Of a DNA stretch of 64,000 bases, positions 39,217-62,701 are shown one piece after another. Source of the stretch: an uncultured bacterium (GTDB lineage: Bacteria; Patescibacteriota; Microgenomatia; Levybacterales; UBA12049); NCBI GenBank assembly GCA_963826535.1, contig CAWGXL010000011.1:384809-448808 (forward strand). The letters run 5' to 3'. Made by a program: the position numbers and the translations under genes. Each line of letters opens with the position of its first letter. Position 1 is the stretch's first letter. The notes beneath the pieces were generated by a model. It saw nothing but the letters and a program-made list of their open reading frames with translations, had not been told where the DNA came from and did not search any database.

Positions 39217-40482
39217 ATGAAATCGCTATCTCCTCATTTTACATTTAAGATTCTTCAGAAGGATAAAACAACTAAGGCGCGGTTGGGAGAACTAAAAACT
39301 CCGCATGGCAATATACAGACGCCTGCATTTGTGCCGGTGGGAACGCAGGCAACGCTCAAGGGGTTGTCTCCGCTTGAAATGGGAGAGATTGGGGTGCAGA
39401 TACTTTTTGCAAATACTTACCATTTGTTTTTGCGGGGGGAAGAGGATGTGATCGCGAAAGCAGGAGGTTTGGGGAAATTTATGGGATGGGATGGTCCCAC
39501 GATAACGGATAGCGGAGGATATCAGGTATTTTCTTTGGGTGCGGCTCAGAGGGCAGTTAAGGGAATGGATAGGTTGACTAAGTTTTCGAAAAGTGTTTTT
39601 TTAACCAGAGAGGAGAAAGATTCCCGCCTGCGCGGGAATGACGATGGAAAGGTAGGAAGCAAACGATTTAAAGCAGCTAAAGTAGACGCGGAGGGGGTGA
39701 CTTTTTATTCACATCTTAATGGTGATGTGTGCCGTTTGACAGCTGAGCGATCTATTCAAATTCAGGATAAATTGGGAGCGGATTTGATTGTGGCATTTGA
39801 TGATCATGAGTCGCCGCTTTGGGGTCATGAAGAGACAAAGAACTCTTTGGAAAGGACAAATAGGTGGGCTCTTGAGAGTTTGGCTGCACAGACTAGGCGA
39901 GATCAGTTGATGTATGGGGTTGTGCATGGGGGTGTTTTTGAGGATTTGAGAAAGAATTCGGCGAAATTTATTGATAAACATTTTCAGGCTATTGCGATCG
40001 GGGGGTCATATACGTCTAAAGAGGTTTTGCAGCGGGTTATTGATTGGGTTGTGCCAATGGTTGCGGAAGAGAAGCCGAGGCATCTTTTGGGTATCGGGGA
40101 GGTCATGGATTTGTTTGAAGGAGTTAGTAGGGGGATAGATTTTTTTGATTGTGTAGCACCGACGAGACGGGGGCGACACGGGAATATTTATACTTCAGAG
40201 CAGAGTTTAAGAAAAAGTGGGAGCTTTACTTTTCAAATTACTAATGTTCAGTATAAAGCCGATATGAGTCCGCTTGATCCAAACTGCAAGTGTTATACTT
40301 GTCAGAATTTTTCGAGAGCTTATATTCACCATCTTTTTAAGGCTAATGAAATTTTGGGCTTGCGGCTTGCGGCGTATCATAATGTGTTTTTTATTGTTAA
40401 TTTGATGCGCGAGATAAGAGAGGCGATTGGGGAGGGGAGGTTTTTGCAATTGAAGGATAAGTGGTTGGGTGGACGTGATTAG
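39217..40482 (+). CDS. tgt: queuine tRNA-ribosyltransferase (tRNA-guanine transglycosylase)
   Basis: [26 protein letters not shown] and the zinc site CxCxxC...H (CKCYTC). Contains a 27-nt GC hairpin insertion at 39619-39645. Confidence 0.85.
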
Positions 40483-40531
40483 ATTAGGTTTCTGCGTTGA
40501 CTATCTTATAATAATAAGTTAAAATGCTTTT

Positions 40532-40963
40532 ATGGGAATTGAAACCAGGGCAGCTTTTTTAGCAGCAGTTTTATTTACTATTCCTGCTGAAGGACAGGGG
40601 CAAATAGTGGAGAAACGGAAATTATTAGATTGTGAAAATGGGGTTATTGAGGGGTATAAAGAGTCGCAACTTAGAGGAAACGAAACTGTAACCGTAGGTA
40701 AAGTACGTTTATGGTCTGACGGAAATGGCGGGGCAGTTATTGAGGGTCTGGGGAGGGAGATAAAAGTAGGAGAGAATCTAAAATTATCGGATGCGCCTAA
40801 TGCTATTATTATTCCATCTAATCGAATAGTTTTTCAAGACGGTGAGGAGAGGTATGATGTAAAAATATGTAAAGCAGTGCCAGAAGAGCCGCCATATACA
40901 ACAATAGAAATAAGTGCATCCTGTCAACCTGAAATAAAAAATAAACCCCGGTTAAACCACTAA
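40532..40963 (+). CDS. small secreted hypothetical protein (signal peptide)
   Basis: 143 aa with N-terminal signal sequence AAFLAAVLFTIPAEG; the upstream region is shared with the 41064 gene. Confidence 0.45.
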   Translation: MGIETRAAFLAAVLFTIPAEGQGQIVEKRKLLDCENGVIEGYKESQLRGNETVTVGKVRLWSDGNGGAVIEGLGREIKVGENLKLSDAPNAIIIPSNRIVFQDGEERYDVKICKAVPEEPPYTTIEISASCQPEIKNKPRLNH

Positions 40964-41063
40964 CGAAATAAGTATAGCAAAATATTAGAATCATTTTTTG
41001 AGTTCAACAATATAAATTATTATGTTGTATTGACGTCTTATAATTATGTGTTAAAATGCTGTT

Positions 41064-60509: not shown

Positions 60510-60710
60510 ATGAAAACAGTTGACTGGAGCAATATTTATAAAAATCATAAAGGCAAATGGGTAGCGTTGGCAGATGATGAGAGGACGGTTCTGGCTGTTG
60601 CGACAGACGTTAAACAGGTAATTAAAAAAGCGCTCGATGCGGGGCATAAAAATCCAATCTTAACCAAGATGCCTCAGAAATTGCTTACATATGTCGGCTC
60701 CCGTATATGA
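60510..60710 (+). CDS. small protein (DUF5678-like GKWVAL motif), first gene of cassette copy 2
   Basis: 66 aa; HKGKWVALADDERTVLAVATDVKQVIKKALDAGHKNPIL. Overlaps the downstream gene by 4 nt. Confidence 0.5.
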   Translation: MKTVDWSNIYKNHKGKWVALADDERTVLAVATDVKQVIKKALDAGHKNPILTKMPQKLLTYVGSRI

Positions 60711-61126
60711 AGTTTTCCTATAAAGATTATGGCGAAGGCATCATCCGTCCTGTTATCCCAATTACGATAGTATCTAAAAACCACTTTGTAATCTATGAAG
60801 TTCTGGTTGATTCGGGTGCTGATTCAAACATTTTGCCAGCAGAGCTTGCGGAAGTCTTGGGAATAAATCTTAGTAAAGGCGATAAGGGAGAAGTAGCAGG
60901 AATTACCGGTGAAAGTCGTGATATTTATTTCCATGATTTGAATATCCGGGTAGGAGGTGATTTATATAAAAAAGTACGGATTGGATTCTTAAAAGAAATG
61001 GGACAGTACAGTTATGGCGTTGTAGGTCAAAAGGGCTTTTTTGATATTTTTGTAGTTAAATTTGACTTAGTCAAGGAAGAAATAGACTTAAAACCGCGAG
61101 AAAGTTTTAGTTCCTATAAAAATTGA
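60707..61126 (+). CDS. retropepsin-like (clan AA) aspartic protease, paralog of 28689..29105
   Basis: VLVDSGADSNIL (D-S-G-A) and FLKEMGQ...GQKGFF; 139 aa. Confidence 0.6.
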   Translation: MKFSYKDYGEGIIRPVIPITIVSKNHFVIYEVLVDSGADSNILPAELAEVLGINLSKGDKGEVAGITGESRDIYFHDLNIRVGGDLYKKVRIGFLKEMGQYSYGVVGQKGFFDIFVVKFDLVKEEIDLKPRESFSSYKN

Positions 61127-61132
61127 GCGCTT

Positions 61133-62701
61133 ATGCATTACGTGGCGGATTTGCATTTACATAGTAAATATTCACGGGCGGTGTCGCCGAGTATGACTCT
61201 TCCGGTAATGGCGCAATTCGCGAGACAAAAGGGACTGGATATTTTGACTGTTTCGGATTGGACACATCCGATTTGGTTTAGGGAAATACAGGGACAGTTA
61301 GAGGAAGCAGGGGAAGGAGTATACAAAATCAAAGATCCCCACAAGGGGACTACCTTCAAAGAAGGGTCGCAAAGTTCAAAGATCAAAACTACAACTCACG
61401 CCGACGTTAAAGCTATGGCGGGCGGGCAAAGCTCAAAATCACAAAAAGATATTTTATTTTTGCTTTCTACAGAAATCTCAAGCATCTATAAGCAGGGGGA
61501 TAAATTACGACGGATACATAATCTTATTTTTGTACCAAATTTGGAAACTGCGGAGAAAGTTAGTAAGGAACTACTACGGCGGGGGTGTAATTTGTCGGCT
61601 GATGGGCGGCCGATTATTGGTTTGTCTGCAAAAAATTTATTGGAGCTGATTTTAGCTATTGATGAAAGGTCGTTGCTTATTCCATGTCATATTTGGACGC
61701 CGCATTTTGGGGTTTATGGATCAAAAAGTGGGTTTGATTCACTTGAGGAGGCATTTGGTGATTTGGCAAAATATGTATATGGCGTTGAGACAGGTATTTC
61801 TTCTGATCCTGAAATGAACTGGCGAGTTGAGGAGCTTAGTAACCGGTCAATACTTTCATTTTCCGATGCACATTCTCCTGCTAATATGGCACGCGAGGCC
61901 ACGGCCTTTGAACTTTCGGAGCCGAGCTATGAAAATATAAGACAGGCATTTATGCGAACATCTAAACTTGTCATTGCGAGCGACCCGCCAGCTGGCGGAG
62001 AGCGTGGCAATCCCGTTGAGAAAGGGATTGCACCCCAAGAGTACTTGCCTCTTCGAGGTGGCGCTTCGTCGTCCTTAAATAAGGGGACTCCTCGCAATGA
62101 CAATCGTATAGCTTATACAATTGAATTTTATCCTGAAGAGGGTAAGTATCATTATTCAGGTCACCGAACATGCAAAATTTCCTTTTCGCCTCAAGAAATT
62201 AAAGAGCATGGAAAGATTTGTCCAGTCTGCAAACGGGAATTTACAGAAGGGGTAGCGCTTCGCATTGAGCAACTAGCCGGAGCGGCTAATGCAGACGGAT
62301 ATGAAGAGAAAATAAGCGAAAGCGGTGTTAAGTGGTATACGGATGGGTCAAAGAGGCATCCTCCATATGTTAAGCTTGTGCGACTTGAACAGATTATAGG
62401 AAGCGGGATGGGTCTTGGAGCAAAAAGCATTAAGGTGAAAGCCGAGTATGACAAATTAATGCGTGAATTTGGGTCGGAGCTTACTATTCTTCTTAAGTCA
62501 ACATTATCTGAGATAGAAAAAATAACTAATGCAAAAATTGCTGAGGGTGTGGGAAGAGTGAGAAAGGGAAAGCTTAAAATTGACCCGGGATATGACGGGG
62601 AATACGGGGTTGTAAAAATTTGGGATTCTGCAGAGCAGAATTTAAAGGGAAAAGAGGCTGGGGAAAAAATTTCTGAAGGGCAGTTGGGGCTGGACATCTA
62701 A
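61133..62701 (+). CDS. EndoQ-like PHP-domain nuclease (TIGR00375 family) with in-frame insertions
   Basis: N-terminal YVADLHLHSKYSRAVS (PHP His cluster as in archaeal EndoQ) and a C-terminal Zn finger C...CPVC. Insertions at 61324-61448 and 61985-62100. Confidence 0.6.
   Translation: MHYVADLHLHSKYSRAVSPSMTLPVMAQFARQKGLDILTVSDWTHPIWFREIQGQLEEAGEGVYKIKDPHKGTTFKEGSQSSKIKTTTHADVKAMAGGQSSKSQKDILFLLSTEISSIYKQGDKLRRIHNLIFVPNLETAEKVSKELLRRGCNLSADGRPIIGLSAKNLLELILAIDERSLLIPCHIWTPHFGVYGSKSGFDSLEEAFGDLAKYVYGVETGISSDPEMNWRVEELSNRSILSFSDAHSPANMAREATAFELSEPSYENIRQAFMRTSKLVIASDPPAGGERGNPVEKGIAPQEYLPLRGGASSSLNKGTPRNDNRIAYTIEFYPEEGKYHYSGHRTCKISFSPQEIKEHGKICPVCKREFTEGVALRIEQLAGAANADGYEEKISESGVKWYTDGSKRHPPYVKLVRLEQIIGSGMGLGAKSIKVKAEYDKLMREFGSELTILLKSTLSEIEKITNAKIAEGVGRVRKGKLKIDPGYDGEYGVVKIWDSAEQNLKGKEAGEKISEGQLGLDI
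61324..61448. repeat. in-CDS composite insertion (heptamers plus ccccacaaggggactac core) in the EndoQ-like gene
   Basis: Encodes KIKDPHKGTTFKEGSQSSKIKTTTHADVKAMAGGQSSKSQKD. Confidence 0.5.

Follow-up and report, generated by a model that had tools for sequence, protein, structure and literature searches.

Palindromic repeats and heptamer arrays inside conserved genes of a Microgenomates bacterium

Repeat-bearing segments in the genes of the window

The window analyzed here is a 64-kb stretch of an 894,453-bp contig from a Microgenomates genome (Candidate Phyla Radiation (CPR)/Patescibacteria), and its closest relatives carry the names Levybacteria, Gottesmanbacteria, Microgenomates or Patescibacteria. 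The GT4 protein encoded in it finds its nearest match, among 5.8 billion proteins, at 70% identity. From ~34 kb to 64 kb every gene lies on the plus strand, and the GC skew is strongly positive over the whole length of the window, as has likewise been published for the Microgenomates order UBA1400 (PMC7143001). In this region conserved genes contain short in-frame segments of two kinds: GC-rich hairpins, several of them with the tags of repetitive extragenic palindromic (REP) elements, and tandem arrays of an A/T-rich 7-nt unit (heptamer arrays). Pfam and PDB identified the genes as TGT, TrpRS, a 5'-3' exonuclease, GT4, NAD(P)HX dehydratase (NnrD), Fic, an ATP-dependent ligase and EndoQ, which upheld the identities given in an earlier note on this DNA (the original prediction).

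Arrays were detected with Tandem Repeats Finder (TRF) and a lag-match scan (18-position window, at most 3 mismatches). For the orthologue scan, window residues were flagged if present in fewer than 30% of the 13-82 orthologues available per gene. The comparison set consisted of the syntenic relatives L001 and L003 (~70% amino-acid identity) and 80 further GT4-centred loci from GTDB genomes. In the list below, hairpins are named after their terminal tags, the GTAG-tagged one being module B; module C is a further repeat whose peptide reads KAMAG or KATAG, and a hot spot is a site that repeats take recurrently within a gene family.

37357-37386, plus strand: murD, module C (containing AAAGCTTTGGCGGG; peptide PADVKALAGK), in <30% of 25 orthologues
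39544-39681, plus strand: tgt, variable segment, residues 110-155, absent from Z. mobilis TGT
39617-39643, minus strand: tgt, CGTC-1-type REP, CGTC-ATTCCCGC-GCAG-GCGGGAAT-CTT; peptide DSRLRGND; fold -13 kcal/mol, z = -3.15
42249-42268, unstranded: trpS, 20-bp perfect palindrome CCTGCCTGCCGGCAGGCAGG, peptide LPAGRQ; extra codons continue to 42282
42445-42456: trpS, second small extra segment, from the orthologue scan
46896-47012, plus strand: 5'-3' exonuclease, GC-rich (68%) long-hairpin block of ~112 nt between the ADDLIGT and TGDRD motifs; -51 kcal/mol, z = -2.1
48511-48532, unstranded: GT4, perfect hairpin TACGAACCA-aata-TGGTTCGTA with a 9-bp stem; its left arm is the host Y-E-P codons and its right arm opens the variable segment
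48529-48564, plus strand: GT4 hot spot 1, heptamer array, unit AAGAACC, peptide TKNQEPRTKNN (TRF/lag scan, orthologue scan)
48811-48850, plus strand: GT4 hot spot 2 (interdomain linker), heptamer array, unit AAATTCA, peptide IQNSKLQIKNQK
48854-48913, minus strand: GT4, CGTC-1 REP, peptide DSRLSHKGTTFSEGSRGND; tag GACG at 48910-48913, stems at 48857-48864 and 48902-48909, tail CCA; z = -2.2
53968-54028 (core to 54008), plus strand: NnrD hot spot 1, heptamer array, AAGTTCA/AAGTTGA
54213-54248, plus strand: NnrD hot spot 2, heptamer array, AAGTTAA with one AAGTGAA unit
55693-55727, plus strand: Fic, heptamer array, near copy of NnrD 54213-54248
58422-58451, plus strand: ATP-dependent DNA ligase, GC-rich extra segment, PSTGSGSPYG, from comparison with orthologues and relatives
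59313-59375, plus strand: ligase C-terminal domain, perfect hairpin TTGCATACC-gcg-GGTATGCAA followed by a (C/T)AAGAAC array
61331-61453, plus strand: EndoQ insertion 1, with GTAG-tagged module B (61336-61373), module C (~61394-61425) and heptamer-like spacers
61970-62103, unstranded: EndoQ insertion 2, 134 nt, head-to-head dimer of GTC-tagged ATTGC..GCAAT units; -47 kcal/mol, z = -2.3

Judged by alignment, these segments are lineage-specific with respect to solved homologues, the 13-82 orthologues and the two closest relatives. The orthologue scan returned 12 segments that match those originally predicted (among them 42262-42282, 42445-42456, 46911-46985, 48532-48558, 48880-48924, 53975-54019, 54215-54238, 58422-58451, 59349-59375, 61394-61453 and 61967-62095) plus the new murD site at 37357-37386, and pairwise alignments to L001 and L003 place indels right at the reported segments. 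Against solved structures, tgt has ~44 extra residues relative to Z. mobilis TGT (query 110 to 155 aligns with chain 116 to 118, PDB) and the exonuclease ~34 between the two halves of its N-terminal domain, which M. smegmatis Pol I lacks; a gap of 7 residues falls at the second array of NnrD, and EndoQ has two gaps of ~45 residues each relative to P. furiosus EndoQ. The exonuclease block is found in L003, not in L001, and in <30% of 73 orthologues; other genomes have other repeats at this site. Even between L001, L003 and the window, the unit, the length and the module type can differ at one site: at NnrD hot spot 1 the L001 array is 21 nt shorter, and L003 has REP modules B and C nested there. 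The proposal that all of the listed segments are insertions thus held for nearly all of them. The Fic loop that carries the array is 24 residues long, against 23-24 in orthologues, so the array replaces a loop and adds none. The 27-nt tgt hairpin is part of a larger variable segment; relatives have this segment too, filled differently, and across orthologues its length ranges from 16 to 69 residues.

The repeat sites had mostly been placed correctly. TRF and the lag scan found the heptamer arrays at 48529-48564, 48811-48850, 53968-54008 (to 54028), 54213-54248 and 55693-55727; the palindromes said to precede the (C/T)AAGAAC arrays lie at 48511-48532 and 59313-59333, both perfect with 9-bp stems; the 20-bp trpS palindrome and the block splitting ADDLIGT from TGDRD are present as described; and the outer-stem arms ATTCCCGC/GCGGGAAT pair at 39620-39639 in tgt and 48857-48909 in GT4. 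Only the inner core CCCACAAGGGGAC needed a correction, since it starts at 48869 as described and, at its second site, at 61338, 2 nt from the position given. That modules recur, combine and nest between conserved motifs with the frame intact was borne out as well. The phenomenon is not peculiar to this genome or to the interval 39.6-62.1 kb: it extends over the Microgenomates clade, whose intergenic spacers are filled with the same repeats. The murD segment itself lies outside that interval and had been missed; its module C motif recurs in EndoQ at 61409 and in other genomes.

Hairpins, arrays and the sites they occupy

Di Nocera et al. 2013 distinguished two superfamilies of small palindromes by a terminal GTAG or CGTC tag (PMC3733652). 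CGTC elements combine the tag (variants TGTC/CCTC) with an 8-9-bp stem starting A,T, a 4-5-nt loop and a 3-nt tail CCA; they are mostly head-to-head dimers with some intragenic copies and no dedicated transposase, and their CGTC-1 family is the dRS3 of Neisseria and the RPE-6 (Rickettsia palindromic element 6) of R. conorii (PMC3733652). GTAG-tagged REPs have GTAG at one end of a palindrome with a 5-13-bp stem and a 2-20-nt loop (PMC3733652).

All eight simple copies in the window and the comparison loci read (C/T)GTC-ATTCC(C/T)GC-N4-GC(A/G)GGAAT-CCA/CTA/CTT. CGTC or TGTC precedes each of the eight, the arms ATTCCCGC/GCGGGAAT form an 8-bp stem around 4-nt loops (GAAG, GAAA, GCAG, GTAG, GAAC), and the tail is CCA in six copies, CTA in one and CTT in one. 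The GT4 copy is likewise tagged and ends in CCA (TGG at 48854-48856 on the plus strand). It is the exception to the 4-nt loop: its loop of 37 nt holds a nested GTAG hairpin, GTAG-TCCCC-TTGT-GGG, at 48869-48884 on the minus strand. In sequence, the ATTCCCGC..GCGGGAAT hairpin has every published sequence feature of the CGTC-1 REP family. Two copies lie in the window and 0-3 per ~20 kb in relatives, and a unit with nested module B is also present in an unrelated metagenome contig, L136.

A second, GTC-tagged family comprises 24 units of the form (C/T)GTC-ATTGC...GCAAT-C(T/C)N, most of them arranged as head-to-head dimers (at least seven dimers), with loops of 12-40 nt vs the published 4-5 nt; in EndoQ insertion 2, small palindromes (e.g. 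CCGCCAGCTGGCGG) are nested in the loops of both dimer units. Module B carries the other tag, reading GTAG-TCCCC-TTGT-GGGG(A) on the minus strand at 48869, at 61338 and at 10037 of L003, and it occurs in several genes: GT4 and EndoQ of the window, NnrD of L003 and a GyrB-like ORF (open reading frame) of contig L109, there in reverse orientation. Module C, the CCTGCCGGCAGG palindrome (LPAGR) and the ATTGC dimers (VIAS..LAMT/PRNDN) are each found in frame at five to seven loci, and the 12-mer core of the trpS palindrome is in frame at 6 other loci. Some GC palindromes in the clade carry no tag. Folding is more stable than in shuffles for the GC modules (z = -2.1 to -3.2), but not for the in-ORF heptamer array (z = -0.2).

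The published intragenic REPs are concentrated in DNA synthesis and repair genes, including those for Pol I and DNA ligase, and the authors doubted that this was chance (PMC3733652). Here, intragenic REPs lie in the Pol I-type 5'-3' exonuclease, the ligase and EndoQ. The analogy with Rickettsia palindromic elements, drawn in the original prediction, is valid for the GC modules as far as the type of element goes (CGTC-1 being RPE-6) and makes them a known kind of element in a new lineage; it fails for the heptamer arrays, which have no hairpin and diverse units.

A metagenome scan with the 16-mer GTAGTCCCCTTGTGGG gave mostly chance or unrelated matches, including one eukaryotic-looking sample repeat and high-GC contigs; the only informative ones were L109, L136 and a set of tRNA-linked copies. 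In the latter, module B (CCCACAAGGGGACTAC) stands just upstream of sequence that by eye resembles a tRNA 5' end (metagenome contigs L098, L108, L157, L160, L165, L172 and L201, GC 0.38-0.42). It is flanked there by a duplicated 5' end, in the order GGAGAGGTCGC, module, GGAGAGGTCGCATAGTGG, and in L108 the 43-nt unit is in tandem duplicate. Either a duplicated target site or a leader structure resembling the acceptor stem may account for this arrangement.

The heptamer arrays stand out by their period. In the window, 11 arrays have period 7, vs 0-2 for each of the other periods from 4 to 13 and for 15, and shuffles gave none. Among 84 Microgenomates sequences (1.38 Mb) we counted 234 period-7 arrays against at most 36 for any period that is not a multiple of 7, while 674 kb of mixed metagenome contigs, taken as control, held 17, the same level as other periods. 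Density varies between genomes from 0 to >5 per 10 kb. After removal of one near-duplicate locus, 226 arrays remained for the ORF-position statistics, and 167 of these (74%) are inside ORFs; per base, arrays are ~3 times denser in intergenic DNA (by arithmetic from these counts and a coding fraction of 0.894), where they often build long A/T hairpins. Units are many, the commonest being AAAATTC, AAAACTC, AAAAGTT and AAAGTTC. Sharing of units within one genome is ~2x expectation. An exact 28-mer, AAAGTTAAAAGTGAAAAGTTAAAAGTTG, is common to the arrays of NnrD (54221) and Fic (55699), which bears out a predicted 27-mer shared by two unrelated genes, and the GT4 array at 48529 matches the ligase array at 59334 at 28 of 32 positions and agrees with it in both ends and frame. 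The great diversity of the units led to the rejection of one mobile "heptamer element" as the only explanation; in sequence the arrays behave like heptanucleotide microsatellites limited to a few hot-spot loops across a large clade. The intergenic copies in the window are the following.

51875-52065, unstranded: A/T-rich 7-periodic arrays forming a long imperfect hairpin centred on AAAACGTTTT
20528-20665 (fold z = -3.4) and ~13350-13440: sister copies of the 51875-52065 element
49427-49465 and 62702-62768: shorter heptamer arrays

The three long hairpins share the centre AAAACGTTTT (3 copies vs 0.25 expected), and their arms consist of 7-8-nt units (AAATTCG, AAATCCG); they may be a terminator-like or MITE-like (miniature inverted-repeat transposable element) family related to the in-ORF arrays. 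Full hairpins made of heptamer arrays, 100-130 nt long and in frame, also occupy the exonuclease hot spot of L009 (~9300-9460), L040, L051 and L066. These hairpins pair an A-rich arm with a complementary pyrimidine-rich arm, so both arms of an intergenic-type element would be translatable.

To judge from their reading frames, the segments are evidently translated. The length of every segment in the window is divisible by 3, and no segment has a stop in the host frame, which is open in 15 of 15 cases, as compared with 29 of 75 (39%) for the other frames; of the five A/T-rich arrays that lie outside GT4, four have no more than one other open frame. In the AAGTTAA arrays of NnrD and Fic, the deviant AAGTGAA unit sits exactly where the frame would give TAA. 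Array peptides repeat every 7 residues, with K, S, N, I and Q abundant in them (e.g. KFKIQNS, NQESRIK, KVKSEKL), and the coding strand of the arrays is 50% A. In an AlphaFold2 model of GT4 (mean predicted local distance difference test score (pLDDT) 83.9), the hot-spot 2 insert, residues 204-234, is a disordered linker, coil with pLDDT <50, and hot spot 1 is a loop of lower confidence.

At the 3' end of GT4, L001 (6995-7006) and L003 (3019-3030) have a C-terminus ~20-28 residues longer, which reads through the CCTGCCGGCAGG palindrome (peptide CLPAGR) and heptamer-like sequence. Repeats that lie right behind a stop codon thus seem able to become part of the ORF.

Within ORFs the arrays are confined to few places. 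Orthologues of the window's conserved genes hold 158 of the 167 in-ORF arrays: 69 in 83 GT4 genes, 19 in 48 NnrD, 15 in 54 Fpg, 15 in 74 exonuclease, 13 in 37 ligase, 8 in 57 RecF, 7 in 44 Fic, 7 in 26 MurD and 4 in 14 EndoQ genes, while none was found in orthologues of FtsH, the amino-acid kinase or TrpRS. Across 28 array-rich loci, hot-spot families hold 4.59 arrays per 10 kb and other ORFs 0.35 (~13-fold). Within a family, arrays take the same one or two sites, where about half of the orthologues have no insert. Counts across orthologues are not phylogenetically independent, and we therefore take the concentration in families as real but unexplained.

The arrays are also strand-biased. For 151 of 165 in-ORF arrays the gene is read with the A-rich strand as sense, and this orientation, like the hydrophilic composition, is what selection on a translated loop predicts; outside ORFs, arrays divide 30:29 between the G-rich and the C-rich DNA strand. 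Only 2 of 164 in-ORF arrays lie in genes of the C-rich strand, which holds 16% of genes in the pooled loci, and in the window minus-strand genes have none.

Perfect stems of at least 8 bp stand directly 5' of 11 of 167 in-ORF arrays (~7%), compared with 1 of 167 on the 3' side and 0.5% of 3000 random ORF positions. Both (C/T)AAGAAC arrays of the window, in GT4 and in the ligase, directly follow a perfect palindrome with a 9-bp stem; in the ligase (59313-59333, array from 59334) the conserved LHTAG codons make up the left arm. The same layout is seen in five lineages at GT4 hot spot 1, where Y-x-P-N codons of the lineage itself supply the left arm, the right arm complements them exactly and the array comes next (window TACGAACCA/TGGTTCGTA; L003 TAGTCCGAAC/GTTCGGACTA; L005 TTTTCCCAAC/GTTGGGAAAA; L064 GTCCCAAC/GTTGGGAC; L004 TACCAAA/TTTGGTA). 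No stem of at least 7 bp occurs at this site in any of 35 minimal-length orthologues. The hairpin-then-array layout is also seen after the ADDxIGT motif of the exonuclease and the GLVA motif of the ligase. At NnrD hot spot 2 the host EFExLF codons form a natural quasi-palindrome, in array-free orthologues too, and both arrays and CGTC-type REPs insert right behind it. Arrays outside ORFs, examined for a link between hairpin side and replication direction, gave no clear preference: the hairpin, mostly A/T self-complementary sequence, lies on the 5' side in 6 cases and on the 3' side in 3.

Intrinsic terminators inside genes were rejected: the sense strand has an A-rich tract after the hairpin, and on the antisense strand the T-rich tract precedes it.

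L001 and a second metagenome-assembled genome (MAG), L002, encode the same GT4 protein; in 11,477 nt with 7 arrays they differ by 4 substitutions and 0 indels (99.965% identity). As far as this single pair tells, the arrays are thus no rapidly phase-varying tracts, and a phase-variable contingency locus was set aside on the same comparison, one pair being a weak test.

Origin and persistence of the repeats

We hypothesize, and consider it quite probable, that the segments are translated selfish or neutral repeat DNA of two kinds, filtered by selection and residing in permissive loops and intergenic spacers of Microgenomates. The first kind would be the CGTC-1, GTC-ATTGC and GTAG hairpins, which would spread within and between genomes as non-autonomous elements and nest in one another. 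The second would be A-rich heptamer arrays that lengthen, shorten, turn over and copy between sites, probably by slippage and template switching when a fork stalls at an adjoining hairpin; hairpins on single-stranded DNA would act as stalling points that localize these events. In genes transcribed along the replication direction, the sense strand is the lagging-strand template. The geometry would fit, in that a polymerase copying the sense strand would reach the array before the hairpin and would then stall with its 3' end inside the repeat. Copies that survive in genes would be those that are in frame, stop-free and hydrophilic (A-rich sense) and that lie in flexible loops or linkers; they would be transcribed and translated as disordered K/S/N/Q-rich or G/P/R/S-rich loops, with no function needed.

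Several points weigh against this explanation. No transposase domain, RAYT (REP-associated tyrosine transposase) or other, was found in the ~25 ORFs scanned between 36.8 and 63.7 kb, the mobility of the REP modules is one that we infer from their distribution, and translation is read from open frames. We likewise infer both the fork-stalling origin of the arrays and their neutrality, and a neutral model does not obviously explain a 13-fold density in a few gene families and leaves the 2 of 164 arrays on C-rich-strand genes (16% of genes) unexplained. It also leaves unexplained why the period is 7 and how hairpins stay perfect in diverged lineages. Slippage cannot be fast, given that no array changed length in the 11.5 kb of the 99.965%-identical pair, and a perfect adjacent hairpin accompanies only ~10% of arrays.

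We regard two other accounts as unlikely. In one, the arrays, with or without a 5' hairpin, would be selected DNA or RNA cis-elements or functional loop peptides kept at set sites of a particular group of genes, many of which serve DNA repair; protein-binding iterons, internal regulatory or RNA-processing signals and replication or recombination signals are candidate roles. Such selection would fit the clade-wide return of 158 of 167 arrays to the same families (4.59 vs 0.35 per 10 kb) and to identical sites, the GT4 hot spot 1 hairpins that are perfect despite a sequence differing by lineage, the near absence of arrays from C-rich-strand genes and the preference of the REPs of Di Nocera et al. 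for replication and repair genes, for which chance was doubted (PMC3733652). It fits poorly with the fact that about half of the orthologues have no insert at each hot spot and that units, lengths and module types differ among close relatives at one site. Moreover, perfect hairpins occur at only ~10% of arrays, disorder is predicted for the encoded segments, and the orthologue counts behind the concentration are not phylogenetically independent.

The other account, to which we would give a similarly small chance, holds that the arrays are the product of a specific strand-asymmetric process at DNA hairpins. A hairpin formed on single-stranded DNA, in part by host codons, would seed or attract 7-nt repeats that are added and copied from a template directly 3' of it. 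If true, Microgenomates would have loops that are inherited, evolve fast and occupy fixed positions in a particular group of enzymes, many of which act in DNA repair. This would be a previously undescribed route of protein remodelling in CPR, and it might illuminate why bacteria favour heptamers as a long microsatellite.

It is improbable that nothing here is mobile and that the loops are low-complexity expansions by slippage in A-rich Lys/Asn codons, with GC hairpins that are chance or locally evolved palindromes. Array-free orthologues do have A-rich KKN/KKK codons at GT4 hot spot 1 already, the Fic array matches the ancestral loop in length and resembles it, the NnrD arrays of the window and L001 differ by exactly 21 nt, and the heptamer units are highly diverse. 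However, identical tags, stems and tails recur in unrelated genes and genomes, in both orientations and nested, and pairs of arrays in unrelated genes of the window have imperfections, ends and frame in common. Expansion by slippage inside an ORF should also be hardest for periods indivisible by 3, yet only 7 is enriched.

Still less credible are intervening sequences absent from the mature protein (small introns, translational bypass as in mitochondrial "byps" or T4 gene 60, or protein splicing). Stably folding GC hairpins in coding sequence superficially resemble bypass or GC-cluster elements, but all segments are multiples of 3 and stop-free while 61% of other frames are closed, one substitution in an array specifically removes an in-frame stop, the coding-strand bias and hydrophilic composition are expected only under translation, and no Rfam intron family was found; introns, bypass and inteins were rejected accordingly. 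An assembly or sequencing artefact confined to this contig can be dismissed, since nothing was found in its favour, repeats of the same types take identical hot spots in >80 assemblies made independently in different studies, and two independent MAGs agree base for base over 7 arrays.

Other features of the window were noted alongside. At 60371-60456, ~760 nt upstream of the real EndoQ start, lies an ~86-nt, ~85% identical copy of the EndoQ 5' end (61133-61218) that encodes MQYVADLHLHSKYSRAVSQSMTLSVMAQY and then a stop. Between the two copies are a small ORF and a gene for a retropepsin-like aspartyl protease at 60707-61126 (Asp_protease_2, above the Pfam cut-off), and 60330-61126 looks, from its sequence, like a two-gene cassette inserted at the EndoQ start with target duplication. 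Two paralogous Cys-rich ORFs of 301 residues (38287-39192 and 62769-63674; ~58% identical, both starting MTFLEKYELLKKSIPVP) bracket the region of the original prediction almost exactly, and neither matches Pfam or NCBIfam. A group of 11-bp repeats, both direct and inverted (ACATGTCAACT three times, TACATGTCAAG / CTTGACATGTA), occupies 12524-12640, in the interval between a minus-strand gene and that for tmRNA (minus strand, 12854-13311), and looks like an operator or iteron. At 44919-45023 an S-adenosylmethionine (SAM) riboswitch, whose 52.7 bits exceed the gathering score, precedes an ORF at 45100-45891 for which no family match was found.

Relation to known repeat families

Contingency loci are phase-variable microsatellites in ORFs. 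The arrays share with them an in-ORF tandem repeat whose unit is not a multiple of 3, but are imperfect, lie mid-gene in housekeeping genes and have the same length in the 99.965%-identical pair. Tandem interspaced guide RNA (TIGR) arrays show no resemblance to the arrays of the window.

Rickettsia palindromic elements insert in housekeeping genes and are translated as extra peptides thought to be compatible with the fold (PMC10969869). The window likewise has palindromic repeats in frame in unrelated conserved genes and absent from orthologues. RPE-1-type elements differ in being ~100-150 bp long with a conserved peptide, whereas the modules of the window are mostly 20-60 nt, fall into several families and occur with tandem arrays.

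Examples of heptanucleotide simple sequence repeats (SSRs) given by Rehm et al. 2015, citing Mrazek 2007, are the cyanobacterial STRR (short tandemly repeated repetitive sequences) of Calothrix/Nostoc and the GGGNATC repeats of Xanthomonas/Nostoc (PMC4692102). Known heptanucleotide SSRs are described there as mostly intergenic, under-represented in coding regions, G-rich and often G-quadruplex-forming, and the authors state that no detailed literature on heptameric repeats is available (PMC4692102). As in those repeats, a 7-nt tandem unit is selectively over-represented and dispersed in the window. Unlike them, the arrays here are A/T-rich with many units, lie in ORFs in 74% of cases with an A-rich sense strand, and cluster in hot-spot loops, often directly behind a hairpin. 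The small dispersed repeats (SDR) of Nostoc described by Elhai et al. 2008 are reportedly 21-27-nt hairpins that nest mutually and enter heptamer repeats and sometimes genes. They would resemble the present case in combining tiny hairpin repeats with heptamer arrays and differ in lineage and sequences, and we mention them as a lead rather than a test.

The closest likeness is to the CGTC and GTAG REPs. Elements of the window share with CGTC-1 the CGTC/TGTC tag, the 8-bp AT-initial stem, the 4-nt loop and the CCA-type tail; the ATTGC family forms head-to-head dimers, module B has the GTAG tag with a 5-bp stem, and in-frame intragenic copies include those in Pol I-type exonuclease and DNA ligase genes. 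The differences are that the host belongs to CPR/Microgenomates, outside the phyla surveyed in 2013 (PMC3733652), and that here many copies are intragenic, a REP can be nested in the loop of another, and REPs adjoin heptamer arrays.

The original prediction knew of no described equivalent in this lineage. Our literature search found no paper describing such repeats in CPR/Patescibacteria, and a 2024 review of prokaryotic MITEs does not mention these groups (PMC10969869); in other phyla, the GC hairpins are a known kind of REP. The findings place dRS3/RPE-6-type and GTAG-type REPs in CPR, evidently translated inside essential genes as in Rickettsia, and would provide a second, independent case of reduced genomes that tolerate repeat-derived peptide inserts. 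Arrays and REPs make up much of the length variation in the clade's GT4, NnrD, Fpg, FEN-type exonuclease, ligase, RecF, MurD and EndoQ, and such inserts matter for CPR annotation, alignment-based phylogenomics and structure prediction. The hairpin-then-array layout, the family hot spots and the restriction to G-rich-strand genes offer clues to the origin of heptanucleotide repeats.

Taken together, the GC modules are a known element family in a new lineage and the heptamer arrays are a variant of known heptanucleotide microsatellites, which elsewhere are intergenic and under-represented in genes; the junction of hairpin and array and the gene-family hot spots appear to be new observations.

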